DNA from: an uncultured bacterium
GTDB taxonomy: Bacteria > Planctomycetota > Phycisphaerae > UBA1845
Reading direction: 5' to 3'
NCBI GenBank assembly: GCA_965371245.1
Contig: CBDUXT010000007.1
Coordinates: forward strand, 12,999-76,998
Length of the DNA: 64,000 bases
Shown one piece after another: positions 21,358-60,897 of the stretch. The stretch's first letter is position 1. The number at the start of each line of letters is the position of its first letter. The notes below the pieces were generated by a model. It was not told the origin of the DNA. It did not search any database and saw only the letters and a list, made by a program, of their open reading frames with translations. A program made the position numbers and the translations under genes.

Positions 21358-24288
21358 ATGCGACCGACCCTAGCAGAAACACGTGACCCCCTAAATCTTC
21401 CCGCCATGCCTCCGATGGATGGGCTCGAGTTGGACTACCGCACCGGAGCGCCACCGCAAGGCTTTCGTGGAGCGGCTGTTGGTCGCTACCTTGTCAGCGC
21501 TTCGTTCGCCGGGATTGTGGTCCTGATTGCACTTCGCCTTTCCGGCTTGCTCGATGTTCTGACCTCGCCGTTCGTGCTTGCCTGCGTCGTCCTGCTCTGT
21601 TGCGTGGCAGCGCTCTACCATTATCTCTACCTGTCGCACCGGTACGTGTGCATCGCCTGGCTCGTGGCAGGCCCCACGATCTGGTTTCTCATCATCGTGA
21701 CCCACGGCGCTGGACAGTTCCTGCTCTGTCTGGCACCGATCGGGTTTGCGACGTATGTCGCCCGCGCGATGGTCCTGCACCACGGCGCGTGGATGCACGC
21801 CAATCCCCACATGGGACGTGAAGACCGCCTTGCCTGGCGTGGTATCTGGGCGTCTGAAACGGCACGTGACACCGTTGCGTCGCCGGTACGCCTCTCCGCG
21901 CGATCCGAATGGCGTGAGCGCCGGCGATTCACCTGGGCCTTTAGCGTAGTTTGGCTCGCCGCCACGCTGGCTCTGATGACCTACGCCTCAAGACGCCCCT
22001 TCGCCGGCATCATGGCCCTCACGCTGTTTACTTCCGTGCTTGTACTCTTTGGCGTGATCAACACCTTGGACTACCCAGGTGCTCGCGTATCCCTGTTCAA
22101 GTGCGCAGGCTGCGTTTGGCGCGCGATTGTGTCGTGGTTTACGTACAATCCCGGAGACGTGGTCGCGCCGGGGGTTTTCCAGAGCCCCGGTGGATGGCTT
22201 GCCCATCGACATCGAATGACGCAGCTCGCCATCGGCGCCCTCGCGACGACGGTTGTGCCGCTGGCCTCGTATTTCCCGGTTGCCGTGATGGCGGCGCCCG
22301 CGGAGCAGTGGTTGCGGGCGGCGAGCCGGCCGTTGCCGTGGATCGAAGGAGGTGCCGATCGAGGAGTACCCATCCCGGCGCCGCCAACGCGTAACCAAGT
22401 TCTGGCCCGTCTCACCCAGGCTCAGCGCGTCTACCTTGACCAGCTCTCATCAGAGAATCAGCGGCGAAGATACCTGAACCAGGTTGCCACCGTGCTTCAT
22501 CAAGCCGCCGTCACTGAAGCGTTTCAACCGGCCTTTGATCGACTGACCACACCGCCTGAGTCCTGGCTGCTCGTCGCGGCCATTCAGGTCTACAACGGTC
22601 AAACCCAGTATGTCTGGGCCCTGACCATATCCTTGGCGATGTGCCTGATCGCCGGGCCGGTGGTTTTCTTCGCCGTTTGCTTCGCTGTCGGAGCCCGAAC
22701 CCTTGCCCACTTCTATCTTACACTCGACGCACCGGATGCCAGATACCACCGTTCCGACACAGTGTCGGCGTGGGATGCCTACCAGAAGCGTCTAGCCGAG
22801 TCACGTCACCTCACTCAGGACCGTATCGGCCGTCGTATCCGCGAACGTGACCACCTGCTGATCGGGCTGAACACCATCAACGATTATCCCGTTCTCTTGC
22901 ATCAGGACATCCTGACCGAACACGCACACTTCACCGGCGATTCCGGATCAGGCAAGAGCGCACTGGGGATCGCCCCAATCCTAACGCAACTGATCGGCAG
23001 GCCGGCCAGCTCCATCGTGGTGCTCGACCTCAAGGGCGATCGAGCGCTGTTCGAGTGTGCCCGCCTCGAAGCCCAGCGCCAAGGCATCCCGTTTCGATGG
23101 TTCACCAACCAGCCTAACAGTGCGACGTTTGCGTTCAATCCGTTTCTTCAGGCGCAGATGAAACAGATCTCCCGCGTGCAGCTCGCGGAGGTACTACTGA
23201 AATCGATGGGCCTCGAGTATGGCGGGGGGTACGGGCGCGCCTACTTCTCCTCGATGCATCGCGACGTGCTTACGAAACTCCTCGTTCAATTCCCTGAGAT
23301 CGACTCGTTCCGGTTGTTGTACCATTACCTCACGAACGCACGTGACTACATCGACGTCACGCGCGAGCAGCAGAGCCGTGGGGCGCACCTGATCACAACG
23401 GTCGGCATGCTAGCCGCGATAGACGCACTCAACGTTCGTCCAAACGACGCCGCTGACGAAGAAATCTTTGCCCGGCGCATCGACATGTCCGAAGTGGTTG
23501 CAAACCCCAACGTTGTGTATTTCCACCTCAAGACCCAGCTTCAAGAGGCCACGATGAGCGAGGTGGCCAAGCTAGCGCTCTTCTCACTACTCACCGCCGC
23601 CGTTCTGAACCCTGCTCGCGATCACCAGGTCTATCTGTTCGTTGACGAGTTTCAGCAGATCGTCTCGTCGGACATCGAGATCGTCCTCAGGATGGCCCGT
23701 GACTCAGGTATCGCGACCATCCTTGCCAATCAGACAATCAGTGACCTCGTCACGCATGATGCCGATCTGAGGCCAACGGTCCAAGCCAACACACGCTTCA
23801 AGCTCGTCTATTCGGCTACAGATCTCGCGCAGCAAGATGACGTTATCAAGGCGTCCGGGGAGGCGTTATACGAGATGTTCAACGTGACCGAGAGCTTCGA
23901 GAAAGGGCCCAGGGGTTTCTCCAGGAACGAACAGATCGGCCCCAGGATCAGACGCAACGATGTCATTCTCGCAAGCGACGACGAAAACCGAAGCATCGCC
24001 CACATCTCACGCGGTCGTGGCTACACCCAGTTCGGCGGCTTCCCGTTCCCGATGTATACGGCGTTTCACATTCCCAACGAAGAGTACGTGCGGCGAAGAA
24101 AAGCGCCGCCACCGGAACCCGCAGCCTATCCCGGCTCCTTTGTGGAGCCCCTCGACGGCGGTACTCGGGGTCTCCCGGCTACACCAGCCCAACAGCCCCC
24201 TCCAGCGGCTGAAGCACGACCCGTTCCATCTGACCCGGTCGAGCAGGGCCGGATCGATGACATCGGAGTGATACTCGATGAGTTCTAA
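21358..24288 (+). CDS. Polytopic membrane-anchored P-loop ATPase, type IV coupling protein (TraD/VirD4)-like (976 aa)
   Basis: The first ~480 aa contain many hydrophobic helices. They are followed by Walker A HFTGDSGSGKSALG, VVLDLKGD, Walker B VYLFVDEFQQIV and ILANQTISDL. Confidence 0.6.
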   Translation: MRPTLAETRDPLNLPAMPPMDGLELDYRTGAPPQGFRGAAVGRYLVSASFAGIVVLIALRLSGLLDVLTSPFVLACVVLLCCVAALYHYLYLSHRYVCIAWLVAGPTIWFLIIVTHGAGQFLLCLAPIGFATYVARAMVLHHGAWMHANPHMGREDRLAWRGIWASETARDTVASPVRLSARSEWRERRRFTWAFSVVWLAATLALMTYASRRPFAGIMALTLFTSVLVLFGVINTLDYPGARVSLFKCAGCVWRAIVSWFTYNPGDVVAPGVFQSPGGWLAHRHRMTQLAIGALATTVVPLASYFPVAVMAAPAEQWLRAASRPLPWIEGGADRGVPIPAPPTRNQVLARLTQAQRVYLDQLSSENQRRRYLNQVATVLHQAAVTEAFQPAFDRLTTPPESWLLVAAIQVYNGQTQYVWALTISLAMCLIAGPVVFFAVCFAVGARTLAHFYLTLDAPDARYHRSDTVSAWDAYQKRLAESRHLTQDRIGRRIRERDHLLIGLNTINDYPVLLHQDILTEHAHFTGDSGSGKSALGIAPILTQLIGRPASSIVVLDLKGDRALFECARLEAQRQGIPFRWFTNQPNSATFAFNPFLQAQMKQISRVQLAEVLLKSMGLEYGGGYGRAYFSSMHRDVLTKLLVQFPEIDSFRLLYHYLTNARDYIDVTREQQSRGAHLITTVGMLAAIDALNVRPNDAADEEIFARRIDMSEVVANPNVVYFHLKTQLQEATMSEVAKLALFSLLTAAVLNPARDHQVYLFVDEFQQIVSSDIEIVLRMARDSGIATILANQTISDLVTHDADLRPTVQANTRFKLVYSATDLAQQDDVIKASGEALYEMFNVTESFEKGPRGFSRNEQIGPRIRRNDVILASDDENRSIAHISRGRGYTQFGGFPFPMYTAFHIPNEEYVRRRKAPPPEPAAYPGSFVEPLDGGTRGLPATPAQQPPPAAEARPVPSDPVEQGRIDDIGVILDEF

Positions 24289-25630
24289 CGAAGGAGCCAC
24301 CACCATGTCGCATGATGAATCGAAGAGCATCGGTTTCCCTCCCTTGATGGCCGCGGTCTTCGCCGGCGCCATGCTGCTACTCGTAGCTTACTCGCTCTTC
24401 TCCGCCCAGTGGGGCACCGTCTCGGTGGGCTTGGTCGATGTAGGGTCGGCCTCCGGATCAGCCACCGACTTCGTCCCGGCCCAACAAAACGTGCTTGAGA
24501 GCGTCGAAAACGAACGCCGCGCGTTGGCCAAGACGCGATTGCTGATGCTGTCGCAGGAATCCGAGGAGGTCAGCGCACTCGTGGCTGACCTCGAGATCGA
24601 GATCAGGGCGTGGGAGGCCGAGATCCTTCCGCTCTTGGAGAATGACTCCGGAAAATCACTTGCCCTCAACCCGGACTACGTCGAAGTGTTTCGTCAAATC
24701 CAGTCGAGCACGAGTCGTTCGGATCGTGGGACGCCCGAACACCATCGTGCATTGCTGGCAAGCATCATGGAGCCGGTGGAGAAAGCGCTCGCGGACCCAT
24801 CCTTCGCCTACTCGCCGAGTGAACAGCTCATCACCCAACTGGACAGCCTCAAGACTTCAATCCAGGAGGCGATCAAGTCCTACCGCGAACCACGGCAACA
24901 GATCCAAAGCATAGTCTCGACCCACCTCCGGAATCCAGTAGCGGCCCCTGGTGAGCTGACGCTACGACAGACGCTTGAAGCGCTCGCAGAGTGCGAAGCG
25001 ATGGAGCAGGCGCAGGCCATTGCTGATGCCGTTGCGGCAGAACGAGCCAAGGCGCAGGAAGAATTCGCCGCCCTGGAAGCCGAGAAGGCTCGCAACGAGG
25101 CCGCCCGAGAGCTGGCGCGACAGCGTCAAGAAGAGCGGAACCGTCAAGCCGAAGCCGAGCGAAGCCTGGCTCGCCAGCGCGAAGACGAACAGCGTCGTGC
25201 GGCCGCCGCCAAGATCGCCGAGGTGCATCGACGCGCGGCCGATCCAGCGATTCAAGCCAAGTACAAGCCGTTTCTGGCGAAGGGAAGGTTTCGCTTCTTT
25301 CCGGGCGGACAGAGGGCCTACAAACCCAAGGGCTACCGATACCCTCGACCAGCGTCCTTCAAGCGCCTTCGAGAGTGTGGCATACTCCGAAACATCGTTG
25401 TCTTCTTGAAGACCGGCAAAGGCTCGATTGGTGGGCGTCAGACGAACTACGGCAATGTCATCTACTACGTGGACAGCGACGGTTTTGCCAGCCAAGGCTA
25501 CGGCAATGACCGACCAACCTGGTCCGGATACCCCAATACAGAAGCCCAGTGGCGAGCGGCTACCGCTCGTTTCCGAGAGTTTCTCGAACTCGCTCCGTAC
25601 TGGATCAAGAGCGGCGTACTACTTCCGTAG
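24278..25630 (+). CDS. Membrane-anchored coiled-coil protein (450 aa)
   Basis: Overlaps the upstream stop by 11 nt (alternative ATG at 24305 after GAAGGAG). TM helix FPPLMAAVFAGAMLLLVAYSLF. Long charged E/R/A/Q heptad-like stretch (ERAKAQEEFAALEAEKARNEAARELARQRQEERNRQAEAERSLARQRE). Confidence 0.6.
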   Translation: MSSNEGATTMSHDESKSIGFPPLMAAVFAGAMLLLVAYSLFSAQWGTVSVGLVDVGSASGSATDFVPAQQNVLESVENERRALAKTRLLMLSQESEEVSALVADLEIEIRAWEAEILPLLENDSGKSLALNPDYVEVFRQIQSSTSRSDRGTPEHHRALLASIMEPVEKALADPSFAYSPSEQLITQLDSLKTSIQEAIKSYREPRQQIQSIVSTHLRNPVAAPGELTLRQTLEALAECEAMEQAQAIADAVAAERAKAQEEFAALEAEKARNEAARELARQRQEERNRQAEAERSLARQREDEQRRAAAAKIAEVHRRAADPAIQAKYKPFLAKGRFRFFPGGQRAYKPKGYRYPRPASFKRLRECGILRNIVVFLKTGKGSIGGRQTNYGNVIYYVDSDGFASQGYGNDRPTWSGYPNTEAQWRAATARFREFLELAPYWIKSGVLLP

Positions 25631-25957: not shown

Positions 25958-26260
25958 CTACTTCTTGGGTCTTGAAGCAGCGTATCGCGGATCAACCCCA
26001 TTGGTTTTTGGGATGAGCAATCGAGCCGCATCCCGAACCCATGCGCCGGCACGAATCGCCGCACGGGCCACGTCCTCGAGGTCCTCGGGGTAGAAGGCAG
26101 CTCGATACCCCTTCGCCCCATCGCTGGACGTTTCCAAACGGCGCAGGCTGATCTTCAGTATCAGGCCACCCTTCGGGGCTCTGTTGGCCCAGACGGTCGC
26201 ATGAACCATGCCGAACGTAAATTCCTGCACCGGTATTCCGGTCTGTTTCTTGTCTTCCAT
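25958..26260 (-). CDS. Small PC4-like (putative ssDNA-binding) protein, paralog 1
   Basis: EFTFGMVHATVWANRAPKGGLILKISLRRL...GYRAAFYPEDLEDVARAAIRAGAWV aligns by eye with the paralogs at 28078 and 48231. Confidence 0.55.
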   Translation of the reverse strand: MEDKKQTGIPVQEFTFGMVHATVWANRAPKGGLILKISLRRLETSSDGAKGYRAAFYPEDLEDVARAAIRAGAWVRDAARLLIPKTNGVDPRYAASRPKK

Positions 26261-27012
26261 GGCATCCTCATCGGATTCTTACCGCCAAAGTTCTTCAACG
26301 GTATCTGTTACAATCTCCTCGTCCACCACCACTCCGGCGACAGCTCATGCATGCACAAGCAGCCGACGCAATGTCGTGTAACGAGTTGAGAATGTCGTGA
26401 AGAGCGCTCTGTCGAAAGGCAACGCCGATTGTATTGTCACGCCCGGGCGCTCGCAGGCGGATGGTCGTCGTTCATTCTAGTATCTCGCCCTGAACGACGA
26501 GGGCGGAACCACAAACCCAAAAGGGATTGTCTTCGTTAGCCGGAATCGCTTCTGAACTTGCCAAAGAGCACGCGGCCAAGGCCGCCACTCCATTATACCC
26601 TGCGGCCTCGCCCGCGAGGGCCTTCGGTGGCAAGAATCGCCCAGGCTGGACAGCGGCAGTCCGCCCGTCGGTCACGGTTGGTTCCCTTGGGGCTTCGTTG
26701 GTCTTGTTGAGTCGCGTGTGTCCTAGACATCTTTTTGCGCTTTTTCCCACGGTGGTCGAAGGTTGGTCGTGCGTTTGGGCCAGTTGCGCGACGACGACCA
26801 CCTGGCCGTGGTCTGTGTGCGTTACCCGGCGCACTTGACAATTCTCGTGTTTTCTGTCGTTAATAGACGCTTCACGCAGTTCCTTGTCATCTCGCAAATC
26901 TGAGTAGTTCATCCAACCCCGAAACTCATCGACCGCTTGCCCGAGCCGCCGCCGAGTGTTCGGTGGTGCAAGTCACGGTTTTCACGCGGTTTTCAAGCTG
27001 ACAGGAGGAGCT

Positions 27013-28038
27013 ATGCGCACGCTCAACGATGCAAGCCAACAACTTTTCGAACGGTCTCCCGACGAGCGATTCGAATCACTTCGAACGCTCTGGGAGCACT
27101 GCCAACAGGAGAAAGCGGAATCACTTGACCGGTGGGTTCCGCCGGAACAGTTCCGAGCGGAGCCCGACGCCGGAGGGCTGAGACTCAGCGTCGGCGAGGA
27201 TTCGCTACGTTTGAACGATTGGAGCTTCGGCCAGGTCTGCCGGCTTGCCGGCGTCACCAAAGATACCGTCAATCGCCTGTCGCCCGATACCGCGGCAAGT
27301 GTCATGGAAGAGACACTGCCTCGGAACGGGAAGCCGTTTCAGGTGCTTACGCGAGACCACCGCGTCCGCGCGGTCCATGGAGCGAGCTACACCCGGCTCT
27401 ACAACGCCGACCTGCTCACGATGCTCCGTGAGTTCGCGACGGATTTCGAGCCGGCGCCCGTCGGCGTCAACGGCGCGACCGGATTGTATTGCGGAGAGCA
27501 AGATATGTTCTGCTTCCTGATCGATCCGTCGGGCTGGGCGGAGATTGCCGGTGAGGCCTTCGCTCCGGGTTTTTTCGTTTGGAACTCAGAGGTCGGACGC
27601 CGTTCGCTCGGTGTCAAGACGTTCTGGTTTCAGGCCGTCTGCCAGAATCACATCGTCTGGGACGCGGTCGAGGTCGTGGAGTTCAGCCGCAAACACACGG
27701 CCAAGGTCCACGACGGGCTTCGCGACATCCGCGACATCATCGCCCGCCTAGTCGAAAGCCGCGACCGCCGCCGCGACAGCTTTGTGCGCGTGGTGGAAAA
27801 AGCCGCCGCTCAGCGACTTGGTTCCGACGCCGACGAGGTTCTCGAAGTTCTCAAGGACCGCGGCATCCGGCGAACGCTCGCCAAGGAGGCCGTGCAACTC
27901 GCCGAAGCCAATGGCCGCGGATTCACGGTGTTTGCGATTGTGGACGCCCTCACACGCGTCGCCGGCCGAATGAAGTACGCCGGCGACCGCGTAGAGGCTG
28001 ATGAGAAGGCCGGGAAGCTGCTTGCGCTCGTAGCGTAA
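27013..28038 (+). CDS. DUF932-like (phage/plasmid-associated) protein
   Basis: AGGAGGAG upstream of ATG 27013. The core LYCGEQDMFCFLID...GFFVWNSEVGRRSLGVKTFWFQAVCQNHIVW matches my recollection of the DUF932 signature (..DrDmF.fl....GF...NSevG..sl........vC.N). Confidence 0.65.
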   Translation: MRTLNDASQQLFERSPDERFESLRTLWEHCQQEKAESLDRWVPPEQFRAEPDAGGLRLSVGEDSLRLNDWSFGQVCRLAGVTKDTVNRLSPDTAASVMEETLPRNGKPFQVLTRDHRVRAVHGASYTRLYNADLLTMLREFATDFEPAPVGVNGATGLYCGEQDMFCFLIDPSGWAEIAGEAFAPGFFVWNSEVGRRSLGVKTFWFQAVCQNHIVWDAVEVVEFSRKHTAKVHDGLRDIRDIIARLVESRDRRRDSFVRVVEKAAAQRLGSDADEVLEVLKDRGIRRTLAKEAVQLAEANGRGFTVFAIVDALTRVAGRMKYAGDRVEADEKAGKLLALVA

Positions 28039-28077
28039 GCGGCTCCCGGCCATGGTTAACAACAAGGAGAAAAGAGA

Positions 28078-28350
28078 ATGGCTAACAACAAACCTGTTCA
28101 CGAAGTTCGGCTCGGCGTCGTCAAGGCCGCTGTTTGGGCAAACGACACCAAGGTCGGCGTCCGTTACGGCGTGACCTTCCAGCGCCTGTACAAGGACGGC
28201 GACGAGTGGAAGACGACCGAGAGCTTCGGTCGTGACGACCTGCCGCTTGTCGCCAAGGTCGCCGACATGGTCCACACCTGGATCTACCAGGAAGGGCGAA
28301 ACGGCAACGGCGCCGAACGCACGGAGTCCGACTCCGGCGACGGATCGTAG
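28078..28350 (+). CDS. Small PC4-like (putative ssDNA-binding) protein, paralog 2
   Basis: AAGGAGAA upstream of the ATG. VHEVRLGVVKAAVWANDTKVGVRYGVTFQRLYKDGDEWKTTESFGRDDLPLVAKVADMVHTWI, then an acidic/Gly tail. Confidence 0.7.
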   Translation: MANNKPVHEVRLGVVKAAVWANDTKVGVRYGVTFQRLYKDGDEWKTTESFGRDDLPLVAKVADMVHTWIYQEGRNGNGAERTESDSGDGS

Positions 28351-28760: not shown

Positions 28761-31700
28761 TCAAGGGTCAATCGTGATTGCTCGACATCCGTCGTTTCCA
28801 GCCGGGCACACATCAGTGCATCCATTGAAGACATCTACACCGGCCTTAAGGTATTGGGTGCCGATTAGTGCCCCACAGTTCATTCCGTACGTAACGGGGA
28901 ACCTCAAAGACTGACCTGGGGCAAGTGAATTCACATTAAACGTGAGTACGAACAAGGGGAATCCCGCGCAGGCACCGTAGTCACCGCAAGCCGAGTTAAG
29001 ACATATTCCGGTTCTCCAACAGCGCGGCTCAGAAGATATGTTGCCCACGTTTGTCACCTGTACGGTCCAAGAAACTGAATTACATATCCTTCCGCGTGAC
29101 GGAGCGTCGAGTATCTCGAACTCCAGATCCCAAATCGGGACGGCGATCGGCAGTTGGACGTTCAGGCAATCGTTGGAGGGCGTGGAATCCAAGAGAAGTG
29201 AGCATGCAGTGACAGTAAACTCGTTCAGCCCTCCGCAAGCACCGGACGAGAGCGGTGTCAGAAGACTTACGAAACCTGTTGCTTCTCCGAAGGCCGGGAC
29301 TTGGACTGTCGTTTCACCGCAATTCCCTTGAATGCACACTCTCGCAGTGGCGGCCGTGCCGGTTGAACCTGAGTTACGGAGTGCCACGCCATAGTTGCGC
29401 GGCCCGATCCCCCCAATGACCCCGCCGGGCAGGATGATACTCGCGACGGATACCTCCGGCGGCAGGTCGAGAGGGCAGCCGGTGGAATCCACGGCAACGT
29501 CCGTGGTTCCGGGACACTGATCCATCTGATCGGGCACGCCGTCGCCATCCCCGTCGAGAACACACCCGACCTGATCAACTATCCCTCCGGTTGTTCCAGG
29601 ACAATCGTCGAGATCATCGTTGACGCCATCTTCGTCGCTGTCCCGTTGATTCGCAGCACAACCGCGGTCGTCAACGGCTAGCAAGGATTCTGTCGCAGGA
29701 CACTCGTCGAGGTCGTCGAAGACTCCGTCGCCGTCCTTGTCGATCCCACGCCCCGGCTCAAACCCCACGGCCACGGGAAGCAAGGCCACGCCCTGCGGAG
29801 ATTGCAGCCCGGTGATCGGTAAGTCCTCAACGTCGGTTCCATCGAGGTCGGCGCGATGGATTTTGTCCGTCAGCGAATCCGCCCAGTAAATCTTGCCACC
29901 CTCAGGATCGATCACAATTCCTTGTGGTGATAGGAGCCCCGAAATTGGCAGCTCCTCAACAGACGTACCATCCAGGTTCGCGCGTCGAATCGCGTCCGCG
30001 CCATTGTCGGTCCAGTAGATCTTCTTGTTAAGTGGGTCCATGGCGATGCCCTGTGGGGAGATGAGGCCGCTGATCGGCAAGTCCTCCGCGTCGGTTCCAT
30101 CGAGGTCGGCGCGCTGGATCTTGTCTGTCAGTGAGTCGATCCAGTAGATCTTGCCACCCGCGGGATCGACCACAATTCCTTGCGGTGACAGCAGCCCGGA
30201 AATCGGCAGCTCCTCAGCAGATGTACCATCCAGGTTCGCGCGCCCAATTGTGTCCGTTCCACTGTCGGTCCAGTAGATCTTCTTGTTAAGTGAGTCCACG
30301 CCGATGCCCCGCGGGGAGATGAGCCCGCTGATCGGTAGGTCCTCAACGCCGCTTCCATCGAGGCCGGCGCGCTGGATTTTGTCCGTCAGCGAGTCGGTCC
30401 AGTAGATCTTGAAACCCACGGGATCGACCGCAATTCCTTGCGGTGATAGGAGTCCAGAAATCGGCAGCTCCTCAACAGATGTACCATCCAGGTTTGCGCG
30501 TCTAATTGTGTCCGTGCCAACGTCGGTCCAGATGATTGATGCCGCCGATGGTGGGGGCGGGGAACTCTCCGCATGGAGAAAACGGATGTTATCCACCCAA
30601 ACGGTACCCGCGCTAAGCCCCGGGTTGAGATCCTTTTCAACCACGAAGGCAATCTCGCCCAATGGATATTGGGAGGACACGGCCACCTCCATCGTATGCA
30701 CGATACCCGGCGGCAAAACCAGTGTATTGGTATCTCGCGTCTCGGCTAGGTTGGTCTTGAGTTCTTTTCTCAGTGTGACCGCGGATGACACTTCCACATC
30801 ACATACTACGCGGTCGCAGGGTTTCACCATAGTAACTTCAGGCTCCAGAACAACCCAAGCGTCGTCTGGCGAGTTGTCCAATGTCCAGCGAAATTCCAGT
30901 CGGCGCTCTCCGTTAGTCGTGAGCACATCCGCCTCGTTACCTTCATTGGTGATCGGTGGCCGGATGGGCTCCTGAAAATCAAAGAGCGTATCGATGACCG
31001 GCGTCCGACACACGCGGATCGGCACCGCGATGTTCAGTTGGAATATGCATAGCGTTTCGCGCAGTGCGCGCGCCATGCTCACGGTGCAAGGTGAGTCTCC
31101 GACCTTGTGAACGATGACGCCATCGACGGAGCATCCATTGCGTGCATTGGAAATGGTCACCTCTTCACCCTCGACCAATCCAAGATCTTCAAACAAGCTT
31201 TGAGCGATCCACACCTCCATCACTCCTGCAGGTTGCCCGGGTGCATTGCAGATCAGTGGTGCACGCGCAAATGTGCCCGCGGCCAGCTCGTCTCCATCCG
31301 GGCTGCCATCAGCGTCGCTGTCTGTACTCTTGGGATCCAGCCCGAACTGCACCTCGAACCCGTCCTCTACACCATCGCCGTCGGTGTCTTTGGATGCCGG
31401 ATCCGTTCGTGAGACGAGTTCTTCGAAGATATCCGAAAGCCCGTCCTCGTCGGTGTCGGGGCCGTCGGGCGTCGGGTCTTCGACCTGGCTCGGGTCCACG
31501 GGAAGGTCCGCGATGATCGGGGCCACCATACCATCCCGACTTCCGTAGAGATCCTGAATCATGCCTATGTCTACCTGCGACAGAACCGCGCGCGCCGCAC
31601 CTCGCGACTCCCGATCGATCGACTCATGCATCACAGCGCCGATGTCGTCGGCATGGACGAGCCCTAGGCTATGTCCCAGCTCGTGAAGGACGAGCGCAAA

Positions 31701-32276
31701 CTGGACATTTTCCTCCGCGGGATCCTGAAGCTGATCGAAGACCTGTACGATCTGCCTGACCGGTTCATCGCCGCTGGGTAGCTCGGCCCAACCCCAGAAT
31801 TCCACGCTATCCTCGCGTAGTGGCTCGCAACAGGGAGGTGATGCGCAAGGCGCGCATAACTCGATCTCAATGTCGGCCGGCTCGTTCGCTCCTGCCTCCC
31901 TGATCTCCAGGGGCACGAGCCTCGCATACGCCTCCGCCGCGTCCATATATAGCGCGCTGAGGGTATTGAGGTCGGCATCTTCTACCGGACCGGTTACCCT
32001 GTATGCGAGTTCACTCTTCGACCACTTGTTTCGAGCCCGCCCCCCCAAGCCGGTTCCGTTTGACGACGTGCGGGGGCCCTTCGGAATCGAATCACTCCTG
32101 ATCGACCCGCCAGGGGAGACGAACGCGCCCGGAGGGATTTCAAAGCAGCTCAACGCCCAGGCCATGACGAAGTTAGCAAGGACCAGTCGTGGCCATGGCC
32201 AGCTACGCCAACGAATGCCTGCCGATCCACTTGCGATCCACACATCCGTACTTTGGGATTGTGTCGGTTCCGACAT
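28761..32276 (-). CDS. Large secreted mosaic protein: zinc metalloprotease (HExxH, matrixin-like) + TSP3-like Ca-binding repeats + six-bladed YWTD beta-propeller + C-terminal Ig-like region
   Basis: LVLHELGHSLGLVHADD (HExxHxxGxxH). Asp-rich DTDEDGLSD, DTDGDGVEDG, DSDADGSPDGD, DKDGDGVFDD, DSDEDGVNDD and DGDGDGVPDQ loops. Six KIYWTD repeats. ORF is open to 32315 and the start is placed at MSEPTQSQ. Confidence 0.85.
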   Translation of the reverse strand: MSEPTQSQSTDVWIASGSAGIRWRSWPWPRLVLANFVMAWALSCFEIPPGAFVSPGGSIRSDSIPKGPRTSSNGTGLGGRARNKWSKSELAYRVTGPVEDADLNTLSALYMDAAEAYARLVPLEIREAGANEPADIEIELCAPCASPPCCEPLREDSVEFWGWAELPSGDEPVRQIVQVFDQLQDPAEENVQFALVLHELGHSLGLVHADDIGAVMHESIDRESRGAARAVLSQVDIGMIQDLYGSRDGMVAPIIADLPVDPSQVEDPTPDGPDTDEDGLSDIFEELVSRTDPASKDTDGDGVEDGFEVQFGLDPKSTDSDADGSPDGDELAAGTFARAPLICNAPGQPAGVMEVWIAQSLFEDLGLVEGEEVTISNARNGCSVDGVIVHKVGDSPCTVSMARALRETLCIFQLNIAVPIRVCRTPVIDTLFDFQEPIRPPITNEGNEADVLTTNGERRLEFRWTLDNSPDDAWVVLEPEVTMVKPCDRVVCDVEVSSAVTLRKELKTNLAETRDTNTLVLPPGIVHTMEVAVSSQYPLGEIAFVVEKDLNPGLSAGTVWVDNIRFLHAESSPPPPSAASIIWTDVGTDTIRRANLDGTSVEELPISGLLSPQGIAVDPVGFKIYWTDSLTDKIQRAGLDGSGVEDLPISGLISPRGIGVDSLNKKIYWTDSGTDTIGRANLDGTSAEELPISGLLSPQGIVVDPAGGKIYWIDSLTDKIQRADLDGTDAEDLPISGLISPQGIAMDPLNKKIYWTDNGADAIRRANLDGTSVEELPISGLLSPQGIVIDPEGGKIYWADSLTDKIHRADLDGTDVEDLPITGLQSPQGVALLPVAVGFEPGRGIDKDGDGVFDDLDECPATESLLAVDDRGCAANQRDSDEDGVNDDLDDCPGTTGGIVDQVGCVLDGDGDGVPDQMDQCPGTTDVAVDSTGCPLDLPPEVSVASIILPGGVIGGIGPRNYGVALRNSGSTGTAATARVCIQGNCGETTVQVPAFGEATGFVSLLTPLSSGACGGLNEFTVTACSLLLDSTPSNDCLNVQLPIAVPIWDLEFEILDAPSRGRICNSVSWTVQVTNVGNISSEPRCWRTGICLNSACGDYGACAGFPLFVLTFNVNSLAPGQSLRFPVTYGMNCGALIGTQYLKAGVDVFNGCTDVCPAGNDGCRAITIDP
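29763..30536 (-). repeat. Six tandem 129-bp YWTD-blade coding repeats organised as three 258-bp A-B units
   Basis: Blades 1, 3 and 5 share G(T/A)D(T/A)I(R/G)RANLDGTS(V/A)EELPISGLLSPQGI. Blades 2, 4 and 6 share LTDKI(Q/H)RA(G/D)LDG(S/T)(G/D)(V/A)EDLPI(S/T)GL(I/Q)SP(R/Q)G(I/V). High nucleotide identity is visible on the plus strand. Confidence 0.9.
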
Positions 32277-32326
32277 TCTCTTTATCCTTTCCCGACAGGG
32301 CCGAATACGCCACAACGGGGCCAGCG

Positions 32327-34715: not shown

Positions 34716-35918
34716 TCAAATCGGCACGTCGTGGGACGCGCTCTCGGACACCGATATCCGCCGCTTGTCGTAGATTTGGGTCGTAGTTACGTGCCGGTGA
34801 CCGAGTAGATCCTGTACTTTCCGGATTTCCACGCCACCTCCGAGCAGCAGCGTTGCCGTCGTAGCCCGAAGGGAATGCGGCGTGTAAATGCACCGCGACA
34901 CTGTCGTCCCGTCGGCCGTGGCCTCTCGCTTCACCGCGCCAGGTAGGCGGCGCAGATATTCCATGATTAGGTGATACATGCCCATGGGATGGAAGTGCCG
35001 CTCGGCCAGCTTGTCGCTGTTCGAGCTGGCCCGCGGTCGGAAGAGCGGCCCACACGTGAGACCGGATCTGTCGATGTACTCGGCGATTGCCTCGGCCGCA
35101 GCGAAGTGCAGGCCAATTGTTCGATGTCTACAGCCCTTTTCGCTCAGCCGGATCGTTGCTTCCTCACCGTCGCGGTGGAAGTCGCTGAGCTTGAGCCGGC
35201 AACCGGCCCCGATTCGCGCCCCCGCGTACAGGTAGAACTTCAGAATCGCACGATCGCGCGCATCGACGAGCGAGTCGCTGGCAGGCATGTTCATCAGCTG
35301 CCGCGCTCGCGTGGCTGGGAGCGCCCTGGTGTCGTGAAGCGGGTCGTTCGATTCCCGACTGATGAACTGTGCGTGGGCCGGATTCGGCACTGTGATCGGC
35401 AAGCGTAGCTCCACCGCTGAGGCCGCCAGGAACTTATAGAAGCTCGACAGCGACGAGATTCGCCGGTTCAAGGTCTTCGGCGCCGCCTGGTGCAAGATCA
35501 GATGTTCCCGGTAGGCCTGAACGTCCTTCACGGACACGGTGTACATTCGCCACGACTCAGCGGGCCAATCGAAGCCCACGAATCTGATGAAGGATTCCAC
35601 GTCCTGCCGGTAGGCGCGTTGCGTGTGCGGACTCCGGCGACGGGCGACCCAGGTTTCGAACAAGCCTGCCACGCAGCTGTAGAACGTCTCAACGCGGTGA
35701 CGTACCTCCGGCGTCACGTGACCGACGAGAACGGGTGGAAGCCCGACCCGGTCGGTCGGGTCTGTGAGCAGGTTGCTGGTATTCGTAATGTCCGTCGTCC
35801 TGTCCACGTGTTCTTGGATGCCCGATGTACCGCACGGCACAGGGCCGTGATTGCACTGAATCGTTGCGGTTTTTCCCTTCTCGCTCGCGCTGCCACTGTT
35901 GATAGAATCTCTTATCAT
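34716..35918 (-). CDS. Tyrosine recombinase / integrase
   Basis: SAM-like N-domain (SPHTQRAYRQDVESFIRFVG). Catalytic-domain motifs ARIGAGCRLKLSDF, GCRHRTIGL, HSLRATTATLLL, LLGHRHVTTTQIYD. ORF is open to 35972. Confidence 0.85.
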   Translation of the reverse strand: MIRDSINSGSASEKGKTATIQCNHGPVPCGTSGIQEHVDRTTDITNTSNLLTDPTDRVGLPPVLVGHVTPEVRHRVETFYSCVAGLFETWVARRRSPHTQRAYRQDVESFIRFVGFDWPAESWRMYTVSVKDVQAYREHLILHQAAPKTLNRRISSLSSFYKFLAASAVELRLPITVPNPAHAQFISRESNDPLHDTRALPATRARQLMNMPASDSLVDARDRAILKFYLYAGARIGAGCRLKLSDFHRDGEEATIRLSEKGCRHRTIGLHFAAAEAIAEYIDRSGLTCGPLFRPRASSNSDKLAERHFHPMGMYHLIMEYLRRLPGAVKREATADGTTVSRCIYTPHSLRATTATLLLGGGVEIRKVQDLLGHRHVTTTQIYDKRRISVSESASHDVPI

Positions 35919-35944
35919 AAGTCGCAGGCCCGGCGCAAGCCGTC

Positions 35945-36274
35945 TTGCGACGGGCCGATTCCCGCATGTCATTCGTCGACTTCCTTGACTTGGAATTCGA
36001 GCACCGCATCGGCCGGCAGCCGTTTCCCCGGCGGCACATGGACTCGGATCCCTTGGACCGGATCGTCAGGAAGTACGCGCGCCGGCTCGGCCTCACCCGT
36101 GGCTACTCGGCCCACTCGATGCGGGCCACGTTCATCGCAACGGCTTTGGAGAACGGCTGCAGCCTGGAGGATGTCCAGCGCGCCGCCGGCCACGCTGACC
36201 CATCGACGACCACGCTCTACGATCGGCGCGGCTATAACCCCGAAAAATCCGCCTCATTTTTCGCCAATTACTGA
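35945..36274 (+). pseudogene. 3' fragment of a second tyrosine recombinase gene (C-terminal ~95 aa only)
   Basis: LDRIVRKYARRLGLTRGYSAHSMRATFIATALENGCSLEDVQRAAGHADPSTTTLYDRR carries box II (HxxR...H...Y) only. No Arg-I or N-terminal domain lies upstream. It abuts the 5' end of the opposite-strand integrase. Confidence 0.7.
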
Positions 36275-37640: not shown

Positions 37641-38053
37641 ACGCCCGCACGAACGTCCCTGGCGTCACCAAAAAAGACCGCCCGTTGTCCGCCGAGCACT
37701 TCGCCGAGTTCGAGCATTGCCACGGCACCGACCCCAACGGCCGCTTCGGGCCTGGGAAACGCAAGACGCGCCGCGAATCCGACAGCCCTTCCGGCGACAA
37801 GGGTTGGCTCGGCGGCGACCGCTGGCGCCGCTTCGGCATCGACGAAGTCAAAGCCCGCGACTTCAAACTCGACGGTTTCAAATGGCTCAAGGACGAATCC
37901 CTCGACGACGCGGACAACTTGCCTGAACCGGAGGAGCTTGTCACGGATGCGATCGGCGAGCTAGAAGCAGCGACGGAAGAACTTCAGATGGTCCTAGGCC
38001 TGCTGGAGCAAAGTCAGGCGAACGAGGTGCTGGAAAAGGAGGTGTCAGCTTGA
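37640..38053 (+). pseudogene. hsdM: 3' remnant of type I R-M methylase subunit hsdM (last ~135 codons, no start or catalytic domain)
   Basis: In the +2 frame relative to dcm: DARTNVPGVTKKDRPLSAEHFAEFEHCHG...DRWRRFGIDEVKARDFKLDGFKWLKDESLDDADNLPEPEELVTDAIGEL. This parallels the EcoKI HsdM C-terminus (DMRTNM..., RWRKFSREWI, ISWLKDKDSIDADSLPEPDVLA). Confidence 0.75.
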
Positions 38054-43947: not shown

Positions 43948-43978
43948 GTTGGTGCACGACCAACCTTCAACAATTGAC

Positions 43979-46980: not shown

Positions 46981-47403
46981 ATGCGTACAAGACTGAAGGA
47001 GACCCTGGTGGCCCGAGCGAGCCGATCCAATCAACAAGAACCCATCGGCGACGTGCTCCGGGCGCGCCGCATCGAGGAGCTGCACAAAGGCCTCCGCGAG
47101 ATGGCCAGGATTCTCGAGATTGCGCCGGCTCATCTGACTGACCTGGAGAAGGGTCGTCGCACCCCGTCAGAAGACCTGCTCTTACGCATTGCCCAGGCGT
47201 ACGGCATCGCTGAACCCGAGCTCCGCGCCGGCTGGAGCCGAGCTGAAGGCATCGTAAGCGAAGTCGCGACCCAAGACCCTCTTACCGCGGAAAAGGTCCC
47301 GGAGTTCCTGCGTACCGCGCGCAAGCTATCACAAGATCAGTGGGACAAACTCATCAGCGAAGCCCGTCGTATGTCGGCCAAGAAGGGGCGTCGCAAGGAT
47401 TGA
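46981..47403 (+). CDS. XRE-family helix-turn-helix regulator
   Basis: IGDVLRARRIEELHKGLREMARILEIAPAHLTDLEKGRRTPSEDLLLRIAQAYGI is the canonical Cro/C1 HTH pattern. Confidence 0.75.
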   Translation: MRTRLKETLVARASRSNQQEPIGDVLRARRIEELHKGLREMARILEIAPAHLTDLEKGRRTPSEDLLLRIAQAYGIAEPELRAGWSRAEGIVSEVATQDPLTAEKVPEFLRTARKLSQDQWDKLISEARRMSAKKGRRKD

Positions 47404-47406
47404 GGT

Positions 47407-48177
47407 TTGATGCCAGCAGCGCAGCCAGCCAAGTTGCTTGAACCACGCCGTGGCGGTCGGCAGACCGACCAGCGCGCCTGGTCCACGCTTGAGCGTTGTC
47501 GCACGAGGCTGGGTCTTGAGGGACTCCCGTTGCCGATACCGGTCGAAGAGTGGATCGAAGGCCCCCTTGGTATTCAATTCGGGTTCTCCGATCTCAGCCA
47601 CCTCGGTGACGGTGTTCTCGGCGCTGCGTTTGTCGATAGCCCCCAAATCCTGATCGACGAGAAGGCGCTGGAGCACGAAGGGCGGTGCCGTTTCACGTGT
47701 GCCCACGAACTCGGTCACCTGGTCATGCACAAACGCATCCGAGCGCGTTTCCATGGCACAACAGCCGGTGTCACGTTCTCAACGAACAAGTACGAGCGCC
47801 AGGCCGATCGTTTCGCCGCGGCGTTCCTGATGCCATTGCCACAGCTTGAGCGGGCGATCGTGCGCTCTTTCGACGATCGCCGCCTGGAACGGGTGCCCTG
47901 CACGCACGAGTTGAAGCAGGTTACTGCGGAGTCTGAGTGGCTTTGGCGTTACCGGGTTCTTCCGGCCATCACACGCACCTTCAATGTGTCGCTATCGGCG
48001 GCAGTATTCCGATGCACCGAAATCCAGTTACGGATCACGAACCCGCAGCCGTTGATGCCGAGGCGGTTGGTTCAAAGGCTGTTGGAACCGGCCGAACCCA
48101 ACGATACCGTCAGCGCAGTCCAAGTCATCGACGGTCGTCCCCAGTACCGCGAAACCCTGACGGGCGAGGCGTCATGA
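47407..48177 (+). CDS. ImmA/IrrE-family zinc metallopeptidase (DUF955-like)
   Basis: HEXXH in RFTCAHELGHLVMH, with downstream E...ADRFAAAFLMP typical of ImmA/IrrE. Starts 4 nt after the XRE gene. Confidence 0.75.
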   Translation: MMPAAQPAKLLEPRRGGRQTDQRAWSTLERCRTRLGLEGLPLPIPVEEWIEGPLGIQFGFSDLSHLGDGVLGAAFVDSPQILIDEKALEHEGRCRFTCAHELGHLVMHKRIRARFHGTTAGVTFSTNKYERQADRFAAAFLMPLPQLERAIVRSFDDRRLERVPCTHELKQVTAESEWLWRYRVLPAITRTFNVSLSAAVFRCTEIQLRITNPQPLMPRRLVQRLLEPAEPNDTVSAVQVIDGRPQYRETLTGEAS

Positions 48178-48230: not shown

Positions 48231-48506
48231 ATGAGCGACGCAGTGAAACCGATCAAGGAATTCCGCGCTGGCACGGCCGTGGCGGCCATCTGGGTCAGCA
48301 AGGCGGCGGTGAAGGGACGAAGCACGGCGCAGCATTCGATCCGCGTGCAAAAGCGTTATCGCGACGACCGTTCCGGCCAGTGGAAGTCGACCACGTATTT
48401 TCGCCCGGACGAATTGCCAAAACTCGCCCTCGTGGTGTCGCACGCGTACGAGTTCTTGACATTGCGCGAGGCCGCGGACATGGGTCCGACGCCAAAGCAG
48501 GATTGA
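48231..48506 (+). CDS. Small PC4-like (putative ssDNA-binding) protein, paralog 3
   Basis: AAGGAG 6 nt upstream of ATG 48231. IKEFRAGTAVAAIWVSKAAVKGRSTAQHSIRVQKRYRDDRSGQWKSTTYFRPDELPKLALVVSHAYEFL aligns with the paralogs at 25958 and 28078. Confidence 0.7.
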   Translation: MSDAVKPIKEFRAGTAVAAIWVSKAAVKGRSTAQHSIRVQKRYRDDRSGQWKSTTYFRPDELPKLALVVSHAYEFLTLREAADMGPTPKQD

Positions 48507-48518: not shown

Positions 48519-48842
48519 ATGCTGCAATACGACCTAACCGGCACGCGGCTCTTCCGCGCGGCTACGGGCACCGACCTTCCCGGTGACGGCGAGATGTTCG
48601 CGGTCACGGCAGCGCTGCTTCTACACCATGATGCATCATACGGCAGCTTGTCGCGGTGTACCCTGGTATTCGATGAGTCTGATCTCGCCGGCGTCGCCGA
48701 GTGCGTCGAATACCGTTTGCCTGCCCTCGTTTCTGACATCGGAGAAGGGACGCAGCTGCGCGAACGGTTGCGCGACTTCGTTGGCATGACCATCGGGTGC
48801 GACGTTCCCTTCACCCGTTGCGCTTCGCCGCATCCAACATGA
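48519..48842 (+). CDS. Hypothetical protein
   Basis: ORF immediately after the PC4-like gene. MLQYDLTGTRLFRAATGTDLPGDGEMFAVTAALLLHHDASYGSLSRCTLVFDESDLAGVAECVEYRL. No family was recognised. Confidence 0.35.
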   Translation: MLQYDLTGTRLFRAATGTDLPGDGEMFAVTAALLLHHDASYGSLSRCTLVFDESDLAGVAECVEYRLPALVSDIGEGTQLRERLRDFVGMTIGCDVPFTRCASPHPT

Positions 48843-48973: not shown

Positions 48974-49306
48974 ATGACCGATCAAGCCCACAATTACCAA
49001 CCCGACGATGAGCAACGCAGCGCTCAGTTCGAACGCCAACCCGCCGACAATGTTCCGGGCGCGGCGTGCCGGCTTTCGAGCCTTCCCGACCCGTGTACTT
49101 CGGCCCAGCTTGCCGCCACCCTGGGCAAATCGCCGAAGACGCTTGTGGACTGGTGTCAGGAGCGCGCGTACACTCATATCCCGTGCTTTCGGCTCGGGAA
49201 CCGGTGGTATCACCGCCTTCCCGAGTTGATGCGATGGCTCAACGGGATCAAGAGTGGTCAGGTCGAGTTTCGCCGTAAACCGCGCATCTCCGGGAAAAGG
49301 AGGTGA
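48974..49306 (+). CDS. xis: Excisionase-type (MerR/HTH_17-like) DNA-binding protein
   Basis: GGAGGG upstream. TSAQLAATLGKSPKTLVDWCQERAYTHIPCFRLGNRWYHRLPELMRWL fits the excisionase HTH pattern (..aa..Lgvs..Tly.w...g.iP..r.G.r..f....l..Wl). Sits 3 nt before int. Confidence 0.6.
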   Translation: MTDQAHNYQPDDEQRSAQFERQPADNVPGAACRLSSLPDPCTSAQLAATLGKSPKTLVDWCQERAYTHIPCFRLGNRWYHRLPELMRWLNGIKSGQVEFRRKPRISGKRR

Positions 49307-49309: not shown

Positions 49310-50620
49310 ATGGCGAGAAAGGAGGAACGATCTCACCGTTGGACGAAGTCAGAACGCGTCGGCGAGGTTACGCTCTTTCTTACACCGCGTAGTCCATACT
49401 GGCAAATGTACTGGGAGATCGAGGTGCCAGCGCCCAACGGCCAAGCTGGTCGGGCGGCATCACCTCGTCAGGCGGTTTCAAAGAGCACTCGCGAAACAGA
49501 TCTCGCGTTCGCCCGGCTCGTTGCCGGCCGCAGGAGTGAGGAGCTCTTTCGGGGGCGGCACTATCCGGAGGAGCGGCAGGCGCCGCAGCAAACGCGGATC
49601 GGCCCGGTGTTCGATGCATTCATCGCGTACATCGAAACGTTGGATCGCAGCCACGACTACGTTTCGAAGCTCAAGGGAAGACTGAAGTGCCTGATAGGCT
49701 GGATGGAGAAGCGACGGTTGGTCTTTGTGCAAGACATTAGCGCGAGCTTGTTGCAGAGGTTCCAGACGTATCTGCGGACCGAACGAGGTGTCACGACGTC
49801 GACAGCGAATCATTATCTCGACGCCGTGCACAATTTCTGCGGCTACGCCATCTTCAAGCGCAAGCTCATGGCCGGCCCGAACCCGGCGGCCACAGGGCGC
49901 CAAGCTGAATTGGATCGGCTCCCGCGCCGCACGCTTCCGCCACCGACCATTTATCCGGATCAGGTCAACGCCGTGATCGAGGCGGCCGCAAACCACTTTG
50001 ATACGCAGATTGTGAACCTCATCGTGTTCATCTGCGAAGGTGGCTTTCGATTTCAGGAGCTCCAGTTTCTTCAGGTCGGCGACATCGACCTCAAGGAGCG
50101 CGAGATCATCCTGGACATCAAGCGGCCTGAACCCGGCCGGGTTCGCCCGGAGCTGCGCAGGCGATGCCTGACGGCCGAGGGACTATGGGTTCCCAAGAGT
50201 CGTGCCGCCCGCCGTCCGGTGCATATCACCGACCGGCTGGCACGAACGATCGGGTCCATGGGACTCGGGCAGGCAACTGATTGGGTGTTTCTCAATCAGG
50301 CGGGAAACCAGATCGCCGGCAACAAGACCCTTGACCACCTCAAGCGATACGCGCTTGAAGCGGACGTGTTGGTGGAACCGCATCCGAAGACGGGTGAGCC
50401 TTGGTCTTTGCTTCGATGGCACTGGCTTAGGCACTACCATCGAACTCGTGCCCACGTCAGCAAGATCCGACGCGAGGTGTCAAAGCTCGCGATGGGTCAT
50501 GCGGCCGACCCCGTCCATGACCACTACCGTGGCTTGGACCGGTTTGCGTTTCACGCGGAGTACGCCAAGTTCGAGAGTGGGCTCGATGACGCGCTTCTGA
50601 CCACGAAAAAGGCGCCTTAA
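49310..50620 (+). CDS. int: Tyrosine recombinase / phage-type integrase adjacent to ssrA
   Basis: GGAGGTG upstream. Catalytic motifs GGFRFQELQFLQVGDI, WVPKSRAARRPVHI, WHWLRHYHRTRA, LAMGHAADPVHDHY. The stop lies 77 nt from the tmRNA 3' end. Confidence 0.9.
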   Translation: MARKEERSHRWTKSERVGEVTLFLTPRSPYWQMYWEIEVPAPNGQAGRAASPRQAVSKSTRETDLAFARLVAGRRSEELFRGRHYPEERQAPQQTRIGPVFDAFIAYIETLDRSHDYVSKLKGRLKCLIGWMEKRRLVFVQDISASLLQRFQTYLRTERGVTTSTANHYLDAVHNFCGYAIFKRKLMAGPNPAATGRQAELDRLPRRTLPPPTIYPDQVNAVIEAAANHFDTQIVNLIVFICEGGFRFQELQFLQVGDIDLKEREIILDIKRPEPGRVRPELRRRCLTAEGLWVPKSRAARRPVHITDRLARTIGSMGLGQATDWVFLNQAGNQIAGNKTLDHLKRYALEADVLVEPHPKTGEPWSLLRWHWLRHYHRTRAHVSKIRREVSKLAMGHAADPVHDHYRGLDRFAFHAEYAKFESGLDDALLTTKKAP

Positions 50621-50650: not shown

Positions 50651-50697
50651 ACCTTTTTTCGTGCTTGTAACCCTTTGTCTGACAACGAGTTAGTAAC

Positions 50698-51049
50698 TGG
50701 AGGCGGGGGGAATCGAACCCCCGTCCCGCGACGGCTCCGGTGGTGCCTCTACGTGCGTAGTCGGTCGTTTGAATCTCGGAAGCGCCGGCGCCGGCCGACA
50801 GGCTCTGGTGCTTCCCAGTCCGACTGTGAGTTCGCCCACGCGCGGTCAGGCGTCACGCGCGGGCTAGCCCGCTTATCGGCGTCTTACGGATTAGCGAGCG
50901 TCATCCGATCGACGGGCTACCTATCTCTAGGCGGCCATGGCAAATGAAGAGTTGCCATTTCTAGTTGCGCCAGGTGTTTAACGAGGCCTCCTGACAACCT
51001 CGGCACGCCACACTACCTTTGACTCGCCCGGTCGAATCCAATCGCCCCC
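50698..51049 (-). ncRNA. ssrA: tmRNA (transfer-messenger RNA, one-piece)
   Basis: On the minus strand the 5' end is GGGGGCGATTGGATTCGACCGGG and the 3' end is GGACGGGGGTTCGATTCCCCCCGCCTCCA (T-arm + acceptor). The acceptor stem GGGGGCG/CGCCUCC has the G3:U pair. The internal tag ORF GCA ACT AGA AAT GGC AAC TCT TCA TTT GCC ATG GCC GCC TAG gives (A)TRNGNSSFAMAA*. Confidence 0.92.
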
Positions 51050-56288: not shown

Positions 56289-56303
56289 CTTTTCAACGGC
56301 CCG

Positions 56304-60869: not shown

Positions 60870-60897
60870 GAGTCGGTCGAAGAAGTCTCGACCGCGC

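Follow-up and report, generated by a model that had tools for sequence, protein, structure and literature searches.

What function is served by a protein of about 90 residues that is encoded three times within a single region of mobile-element DNA? The question is raised by a 64,000 nt stretch (hereafter the window) of contig CBDUXT010000007.1, from an uncultured member of the Phycisphaerae (Planctomycetota; assembly GCA_965371245.1), which harbours three small related genes: c1 (25958..26260, minus strand, 100 aa), c2 (28078..28350, plus strand, 90 aa) and c3 (48231..48506, plus strand, 91 aa). All three are called genes with identical boundaries in the public annotation, where they lie on a single 95,657 bp contig. 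The answer favoured here, at a probability of roughly 0.45, is that they encode a small, dimeric, element-borne protein that binds single-stranded DNA (ssDNA), a counterpart of the plasmid single-stranded DNA-binding protein (SSB) that does not adopt the oligonucleotide/oligosaccharide-binding (OB) fold. As a kind of protein, the small ssDNA binder of a mobile element is already known; what is new is a distinct and very large family from the Planctomycetes–Verrucomicrobia–Chlamydiae (PVC) superphylum, a different predicted fold and, in part of the membership, C-terminal tips of the SSB type.

By the standard of formal alignment the three sequences are true paralogs, as the first-pass annotation had claimed for three open reading frames (ORFs) of about 90 aa. 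Each pair is significant in pairwise BLASTP, with identities of 28–34 % (c1–c2, E 2e-8, 34 %; c2–c3, E 6e-11, 31 %; c1–c3, E 3e-4, 28 %), and a hidden Markov model (HMM) of c2-type homologs only gives 37.4 bits for c3 and 29.4 bits for c1, against a top value of 13.9 bits from 2,000 composition-matched shuffles. The motifs by which the copies had initially been grouped hold less evenly. The first (h-x-h-G-x-V...) fits all three, although c3 has Ala in place of Val; the second (R.Y.D..G.WK...) is a composite that is loosely matched by c2 and c3 but scarcely by c1; and the terminal W-I/V is missing from c3. Similarly, strong ribosome-binding sites had been ascribed to two of the three genes; such sites are indeed present, but all three genes have a Shine–Dalgarno-like sequence (AAGGAG for c2 and for c3, GAGGA for c1).

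Within this trio, c2 is a canonical family member, with a core spanning residues 8–77, and c3 belongs to a distinct subfamily that is fixed 5′ of an excisionase and an integrase gene. The divergent c1 retains P, E, G, A, W20, N22, R36, F50 and L55 of the conserved positions and is without the family-conserved R11, Y38 and W44; because several conserved putative binding residues have thus been lost, it is probably a degenerate or re-purposed copy. Only one clear case of a c1-like relative was found elsewhere (locus L056, 19415–19648). The proteins also end differently, with ...SDSGDGS in c2, ...PTPKQD in c3 and ...SRPKK in c1, such that the c1 tail is basic and that of c2 is disordered, Asn/Gly-rich and acidic.

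Relatives of these proteins are abundant. At E ≤ 1e-3, c2 has more than 2,700 homologs, all of them unnamed or 'hypothetical' and none with a Pfam domain, and a profile search of 1.84 billion representatives yields at least 5,884 clusters at 50 % identity. With one genome taken per species, there are at least 583 loci with a relative, and the best 80 of these were taken for synteny; the counts out of 80 given below refer to this set. Almost all of the best 80 belong to Planctomycetota and Verrucomicrobiota, the former including Pirellulales, Gemmatales, Planctomycetaceae, Phycisphaerae and Tepidisphaeraceae, and the closest relatives of the window copies are from Tepidisphaeraceae and other Planctomycetota. 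Multiple copies per element or genome are common: seven genomes supply two to three of the 80 loci each, and about nine loci have a second copy within 10 kb. Family members are about 80–120 aa in length and are 60–87 % identical across orders, with many near-invariant residues. Despite this size and conservation, none of c1, c2 and c3 gives anything above noise in Pfam, PHROGs, NCBIfam or PDB sequences. No recurrent Pfam or PHROG family emerges amongst 150 diverse members either, the few strong matches being fusions or mis-called proteins (e.g. transposases), and no description of the family was found in the literature searched. The viral collections IMG/VR and INPHARED (GenBank phages) contain zero members, and a phage origin was rejected for that reason. 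On these comparisons the family is a distinct, very large and PVC-superphylum-specific one without a Pfam, NCBIfam or PHROG model.

With regard to genomic setting, conserved synteny and plasmid occurrence together place the family in the backbone of conjugative and integrative elements, and link its subfamilies to specific modules. The suggestion that the window itself is mobile-element DNA is upheld by a coupling-protein gene (21358–24288), two integrase genes (34716–35972 and 49310–50620) and an excisionase gene. In 46/80 loci, the family gene is immediately preceded on its own strand by a homolog (55–67 % identity) of the DUF932-like gene that lies before c2, the two being some 40–100 nt apart. 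Nine loci (L024, L045, L047, L067, L068, L071, L075 and L080 amongst them) display a different arrangement, in which a PD-(D/E)XK nuclease and a 258 aa protein, sometimes with a 137 aa ORF, precede the family gene and a WYL/WCX regulator; a small ORF comes first and a metallo-β-lactamase (MBL)-fold nuclease is sometimes last. By analogy, this module resembles an exonuclease/annealase/SSB recombination cassette, in which the 258 aa protein would be the possible annealase; the latter has no match in Pfam, NCBIfam or PDB. Other neighbours across the loci include ArdC-N proteins, orphan N6/N4 methylases, ResIII helicases, DUF2726, Tpt1/KptA and ParB, as well as MutS-I-only proteins, MBL nucleases, integrases, HTH_17 proteins, PD-(D/E)XK nucleases and WYL regulators. 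The MutS-type proteins, of about 400 aa, consist of domain I without the ATPase and are encoded, in elements of the Singulisphaera type, a few genes 3′ of the DUF932–family pair (L010, L011 and L017, at about 6–7 kb and about 14 kb); MutS domain I is a mismatch-binding domain.

Within PLSDB, family genes occur on seven plasmids, two of which are typed as conjugative and carry canonical relaxases (MOBF and MOBP on pSINAC03 and pPSMK1). On Singulisphaera acidiphila pSINAC03 (MOBF/MPF_T) the family gene is followed by one for a 620 aa ParB-like protein, and on Phycisphaera mikurensis pPSMK1 by ArdC-like, RadC and SprT-like genes. These neighbour sets match the gene content described for the leading regions of plasmids, in which genes for SSBs, for orphan methylases and for anti-defence are grouped together and have early expression (PMC11541004).

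A second line of evidence comes from the protein termini. Past the core, family tails are of low complexity, with an abundance of Asn, Gly and Gln and a net acidic character, and about 10–12 % of members finish with an acidic-x-Phe ending. In P0140, an entire family core is joined by a 45-residue linker to a ...TPDDDIPF end, which is the exact tip of SSB, DDDIPF being the canonical C-terminal tip of that protein; other Phe endings include ...DRIPF (P0196) and ...EVPF (P0147 and P0124). A C-terminal Phe is found in 16/149 representatives as against 20/740 control ORFs of the same loci (Fisher p = 6e-5), and the Phe-ended copies located in genomic loci are all DUF932-linked (10/10, p = 0.0025). 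Within the core, the near-invariant strand residues are mostly aromatic or basic (R11, K16, W20, R36, Y38, W44 and K45), a composition that would be typical of ssDNA-binding β-sheets.

As to structure, AlphaFold predictions based on family alignments for c2 (pLDDT 84.7, with 96–98 over most of the core) and c3 (pLDDT 83.4) both reach at least 90 over most of the core. The predicted core, of about 70 residues, is a four-stranded antiparallel β-meander followed by an amphipathic helix of about 25 residues and a disordered tail. Strands are placed at residues 8–12, 15–24, 27–40 and 43–47 and the helix at 52–77 in c2; the corresponding elements of c3 are 9–13, 16–27, 30–44, 51–54 and 59–83. Such an arrangement agrees with the type II PC4-like fold, which is defined as β-β-β-β-α and has members with 'no apparent sequence conservation' (PMC7549692).

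The first-pass annotation had gone further, and had attributed the three proteins to the PC4/YdbC group itself. Topology is the only part of that attribution that agrees. Neither c1, c2 nor c3 matches the Pfam models for PC4 (PF02229) or DUF2128 (PF09901) at E-values up to 10, and none of the 150 diverse members matches either model. Comparison of family profiles with PC4 and DUF2128 alignments by hhalign gives probabilities of just 0.03–0.3 %, whereas PC4 against DUF2128, as a positive control, gives 74 % (E 2.8e-5); the DUF2128 comparison included a 47-sequence set, and the PC4 and YdbC seeds are 100 % identical to 1PCF and 2LTD. Since the control works and the family profiles fail, homology to PC4/YdbC was rejected as unsupported. 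Structural searching gives no significant PC4-like match: with Foldseek, c2 against PDB and BFVD and c3 against PDB return nothing at E ≤ 0.001, in a search whose power is limited by the small domain and by a monomer model of what is probably an obligate dimer. The top 50 contain no PC4, YdbC, T5 or SP_0782 entry. Weak, recurring matches (TM-scores 0.2–0.4) are to a COMM domain, NTF2-like proteins, fragments of PBP2a and VIM, levivirus coats and PUR repeat III, and were not counted as evidence. Members of the PC4-like fold class amongst the hits are limited to PUR repeat III (E 0.76), the ssRNA-phage coats and, at rank 37, a viral protein labelled 'PC4 C-terminal domain', all of them weak and poorly superposed. 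On these models the family is at most an independent lineage sharing PC4-like topology, with no detectable PC4/YdbC relative; judged by the structural test that the first-pass annotation had itself set, the PC4 claim is unconfirmed, and the label should best be dropped, or kept as 'PC4-like topology, unconfirmed'.

Comparison with individual members of the fold class conveys both the likeness and its extent. The type II PC4-like comparators are the C-terminal domain of human PC4 (1PCF), Lactococcus lactis YdbC/DUF2128 (2LTD/2LTT), Streptococcus pneumoniae SP_0782 and a phage T5 protein (4BG7). With these the family shares a β-β-β-β-α core of some 65–75 residues, aromatic and basic strand residues and a size consistent with a homodimer, and some known members are likewise products of phages or other mobile elements, with a part in recombination or replication (PMC8545432). 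Unlike them, it has a longer β2–β3 hairpin (strands of 10–15 residues), a longer helix (about 25 residues), a long disordered tail in many members and a home in the mobile elements of Planctomycetota and Verrucomicrobiota. Repeat III of Pur-alpha (5FGO, 8CHW) also belongs to a protein of dimerising β-β-β-β-α repeats, and appears at ranks 4–5, 9 and 16 of the c2 Foldseek search with non-significant E-values of 0.76–1.2; however, TM-scores of 0.21–0.40 and an rmsd (root-mean-square deviation) above 10 Å allow no meaningful superposition, and Pur-alpha is eukaryotic, with no sequence relation to the family.

A functional parallel is drawn not by fold but by niche and architecture, with the OB-fold SSBs (PF00436), including those of plasmid leading regions. 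Both occupy conjugative plasmids and integrative and conjugative elements (ICEs) in the vicinity of ArdC, methylase, RadC and ParB-type genes, and in part of the family, as in SSB, a folded domain is combined with a disordered Gly/Asn/Gln-rich linker and an acidic tip, the exact DDDIPF or close variants of it being found in some members. The differences lie in the domain itself, which in the family is a predicted four-stranded meander plus helix, as opposed to a five-stranded OB barrel, and has a core of about 70 residues compared to about 110 in SSB, with zero sequence similarity between the two. Consistent with this, PF00436 finds no match in c1–c3 or in the 150 members, and the predicted topology is not that of an OB barrel.

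Taken in this way, the family consists of small proteins whose genes belong to the backbone of the conjugative plasmids and integrative elements found in Planctomycetota and Verrucomicrobiota. Dimerisation would proceed through the helix, and ssDNA, or another single-stranded nucleic acid, would be held on the exposed face of the β-sheet by R11, K16, W20, R36, Y38, W44 and K45. The protein could then serve as the element's own ssDNA coat during conjugative transfer, upon entry into the recipient or in rolling-circle replication following excision. The c2 type would be co-transcribed with the DUF932-like gene on a coupling-protein backbone and the c3 type with an ImmR/ImmA switch and the xis–integrase pair, from which it is proposed that the latter is made when the element is induced to excise. 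The earlier idea of an ssDNA binder acting in transfer, replication or anti-defence thus retains its fit to synteny, to leading-region-type neighbours and to the SSB-like tips of some members, and loses its original basis in PC4. A more ambitious version, in which the family is an unrecognised non-OB class of ssDNA-binding protein that replaces SSB on PVC conjugative plasmids and ICEs, and in which some members have convergently acquired or captured the DDDIPF tip so as to plug into the host SSB network during transfer and establishment, must be considered doubtful.

Several observations weigh against ssDNA binding. With hhalign and Foldseek both negative, the argument from fold to function is left with topology alone. 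None of the three window copies has the Phe tip, only the tail of c2 is acidic, and the core shows no marked basic character. Beside the xis–integrase pair, where the c3 type sits, a regulator or an accessory factor for recombination would be just as much in place. Neither an oriT (origin of transfer) nor a relaxase was found in the window or in the majority of loci, leaving placement in a leading region unconfirmed, and mating-pore genes were not found in the window either. Finally, the apparent lack of an OB-type SSB speaks for the reading as weak negative evidence: tblastn over 1.4 Mb (window plus related loci), with E. coli SSB as its sole probe, detects no SSB of that type, and the PLSDB gene tables are incomplete.

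The module around c3 favours the first of the alternatives. It begins with an Xre/HTH_3 repressor-like (ImmR-like) gene (46981..47403, plus strand; Pfam HTH_3, E 1.4e-8), followed by a gene for an ImmA/IrrE-type metalloprotease (47407..48177, plus strand; Peptidase_M78, E 2.3e-17) and then c3 itself. Next comes orfX, a 107 aa ORF (48519..48842, plus strand; 'MLQYDLT...') between c3 and xis, which is an unannotated backbone gene with 43–44 % identity (E 1e-26 and 2e-26) to ORFs in the same position in loci L081 and L086. An excisionase-like xis (48974..49306, plus strand; HTH_17) and a tyrosine integrase (49310..50620, plus strand; Phage_integrase and Phage_int_SAM_5) close the element, and the Pfam assignments on both flanks thereby substantiate the earlier placement of c3 between ImmA/IrrE and xis–integrase. 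The c3-type subfamily numbers 127 proteins. In four of five sampled places (L081, L084, L086 and L087) the order HTH_3, Peptidase_M78, c3-like gene, often a small ORF, usually xis, and integrase recurs. The fifth has TrbL, VirB8, CagX, TrbI and DUF2274 genes ahead of the c3-like gene, xis and integrase, and by virtue of this upstream type IV secretion system (T4SS) is, on its gene content, a bona fide conjugative element.

The integrase stop codon lies 75 nt from the 3′ end of a transfer-messenger RNA (tmRNA) gene, ssrA (50695..51049, minus strand; ARAGORN; Rfam RF00023, 148 bits), and because this 3′ end abuts the integrase, the tmRNA gene is the probable integration site. An integrase adjoining the 3′ end of tmRNA is the classic layout of islands that have inserted at ssrA. 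The 64 kb window yielded no further copy of this 3′ end, as would form an att repeat, and may represent one composite island or two elements. Inside the island, a group II intron catalytic domain was recognised at 45195–45289 (minus strand; Rfam RF00029, 45.8 bits). The minus-strand ORF beside it (43162–44016) has no Pfam match, and the intron is for that reason possibly ORF-less or degraded.

Given such surroundings, the proteins might instead be sequence-specific or architectural DNA-binding regulators, either accessory factors for excision and integration or transcription factors of the ImmR/ImmA switch. A small DNA-binding dimer is typical of recombination directionality or regulatory factors; the c3 type is always directly 5′ of xis–integrase and usually immediately after the HTH–ImmA pair; and a WYL/WCX regulator sometimes follows the c2 type. 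PC4-like folds, moreover, include transcription cofactors (PMC7549692). However, no helix–turn–helix, ribbon–helix–helix or other regulator signature was found, and the family is also located after DUF932 and beside ArdC, RadC and ParB genes on plasmids. Several copies per element or genome are common, and the DDDIPF-type tips of some members suggest an SSB interactome rather than transcription. A regulatory role is accordingly judged unlikely, although it is the best placed of the alternatives.

Less probable again is an anti-defence effector that is delivered early in transfer, whether as a nickase resembling AcrIIA22 or as an inhibitor of a host nuclease or sensor. Neighbourhoods rich in ArdC-N, orphan methylases and Tpt1/KptA, and the acidic tails of many members, would be in keeping with such a role, as leading regions are anti-defence islands (PMC11541004). 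AcrIIA22 (PDB 7JTA) is a clostridial anti-CRISPR nickase that relaxes plasmid DNA, a proven case of a very small β-sheet protein from the variable regions of mobile elements that is related to the PC4-like class by fold only (PMC8545432), as the present family would be on its predicted topology. In contrast to the family, AcrIIA22 is without a C-terminal helix and oligomerises via β-strands, and no similarity between the two was detected. Nor was similarity found to known anti-defence proteins, PADLOC and anti-defence libraries lying outside the search. Anti-defence genes are usually patchy and fast-evolving, whereas this family is a strongly conserved backbone gene (at the identities across orders given above) and not a patchy accessory, and its c3 type resides in an integration module, outside any anti-defence island.

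The remaining alternative concerns the region around c1 and c2. Here the DUF932-like gene (27013..28038, plus strand) encodes 341 aa from an ATG that follows AGGAGG, the listed ORF starting with GTG at 26956; its match to Pfam DUF932 (E 1.2e-4, 22.4 bits) is slightly below the 23-bit cut-off, and the protein has no relative amongst PDB sequences. The c2 start is 39 nt past its stop codon. Upstream are a type IV coupling protein of TrwB/TraD-like character (21358..24288, plus strand; Pfam TrwB_AAD_bind and TraG-D_C; NCBIfam SXT_TraD) and, 3′ of this, orf450 (24278..25630, plus strand; 450 aa), which has no Pfam match. By tblastn, coupling-protein homologs are present in 10/80 loci and orf450 homologs in 3/80. 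In several loci an unannotated cluster of about 436 aa adjoins one of about 1,000 aa, and from size and position these would appear to be orf450 and the coupling protein, respectively. Further upstream is a ParA gene (14553–15401), along with a Ser/Thr kinase and two unassigned ORFs. The window copies c1 and c2 do bracket the DUF932-like gene, as originally noted, but the arrangement is not conserved: locus L088 has the same backbone order as the window (methylase, two ORFs, coupling protein, ORF, DUF932-like gene, family gene), and the minus-strand ORF at its c1 position is not c1-like.

Between the divergent c1 and DUF932-like genes is a non-coding spacer of about 750 bp (26261..27012), which contains several short inverted repeats (e.g. 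26465–26500 and 26571–26616) and no sigma-70 consensus. It is a candidate regulatory region, possibly with divergent promoters or an oriT. To the 3′ side of c2 are a metallopeptidase gene, an unassigned ORF and then a tyrosine recombinase (34716–35972). The first of these, a cargo ORF of 1,184 aa (28761–32315, minus strand), combines a matrixin (M10) peptidase with a β-propeller; three tandem 258 nt repeats within it (29781–30554, 79–84 % identical) encode YWTD/LDL-receptor class B blades. Between the two recombinases there is also a defence-type cluster (36597–43141) comprising a C5 cytosine methylase, AbiJ-NTD/DUF7014, a type I restriction–modification S subunit and an AAA_13/SMC-like ATPase.

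That the family is an obligate partner of the DUF932-like protein, as its DNA-targeting or regulatory subunit or, if DUF932 processes DNA, as a relaxosome-type accessory, is as improbable as an anti-defence role: the tight same-strand pairing described above (46/80 loci, and the window), the DUF932 linkage of all Phe-tipped members and the want of any canonical relaxase on these coupling-protein backbones speak for it, but DUF932 is missing from the c3 module, from the nine PD-(D/E)XK loci and from the surroundings of the family genes on pSINAC03 and pPSMK1, such that the link is not obligatory family-wide.

Two further observations from the window concern none of these genes. At 13145–13233 (plus strand), ARAGORN calls a 'tRNA-???' whose anticodon has four bases (tcaa), with no Rfam tRNA match at the gathering threshold; the call is either spurious or marks a tRNA that is unusual or decayed. 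In addition, an intergenic repeat of 91 nt is present in two copies (56209–56299 and 60872–60962), which are 82 % identical and display two GC-rich hairpins each; it is possibly a repetitive extragenic palindromic (REP)-like element or a terminator module.

Conjugation biology is known nearly entirely from Proteobacteria and Firmicutes, and the mobile elements of Planctomycetota and Verrucomicrobiota are little known. Against this background, a large and unannotated family of backbone genes from PVC mobile elements is now defined, and two fixed modules are demonstrated in which it participates, namely DUF932–[family] and ImmR–ImmA–[family]–orfX–xis–int. Cultured hosts and plasmids exist for the family, in the form of S. 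acidiphila pSINAC03, P. mikurensis pPSMK1 and Planctomicrobium sp. SH664. Should these proteins prove to be analogues of SSB, built on another fold and in some cases bearing the canonical tip, they would constitute a clear instance of convergent evolution of the SSB 'hub' architecture, and would furnish a useful marker for ICEs and leading regions in PVC genomes.

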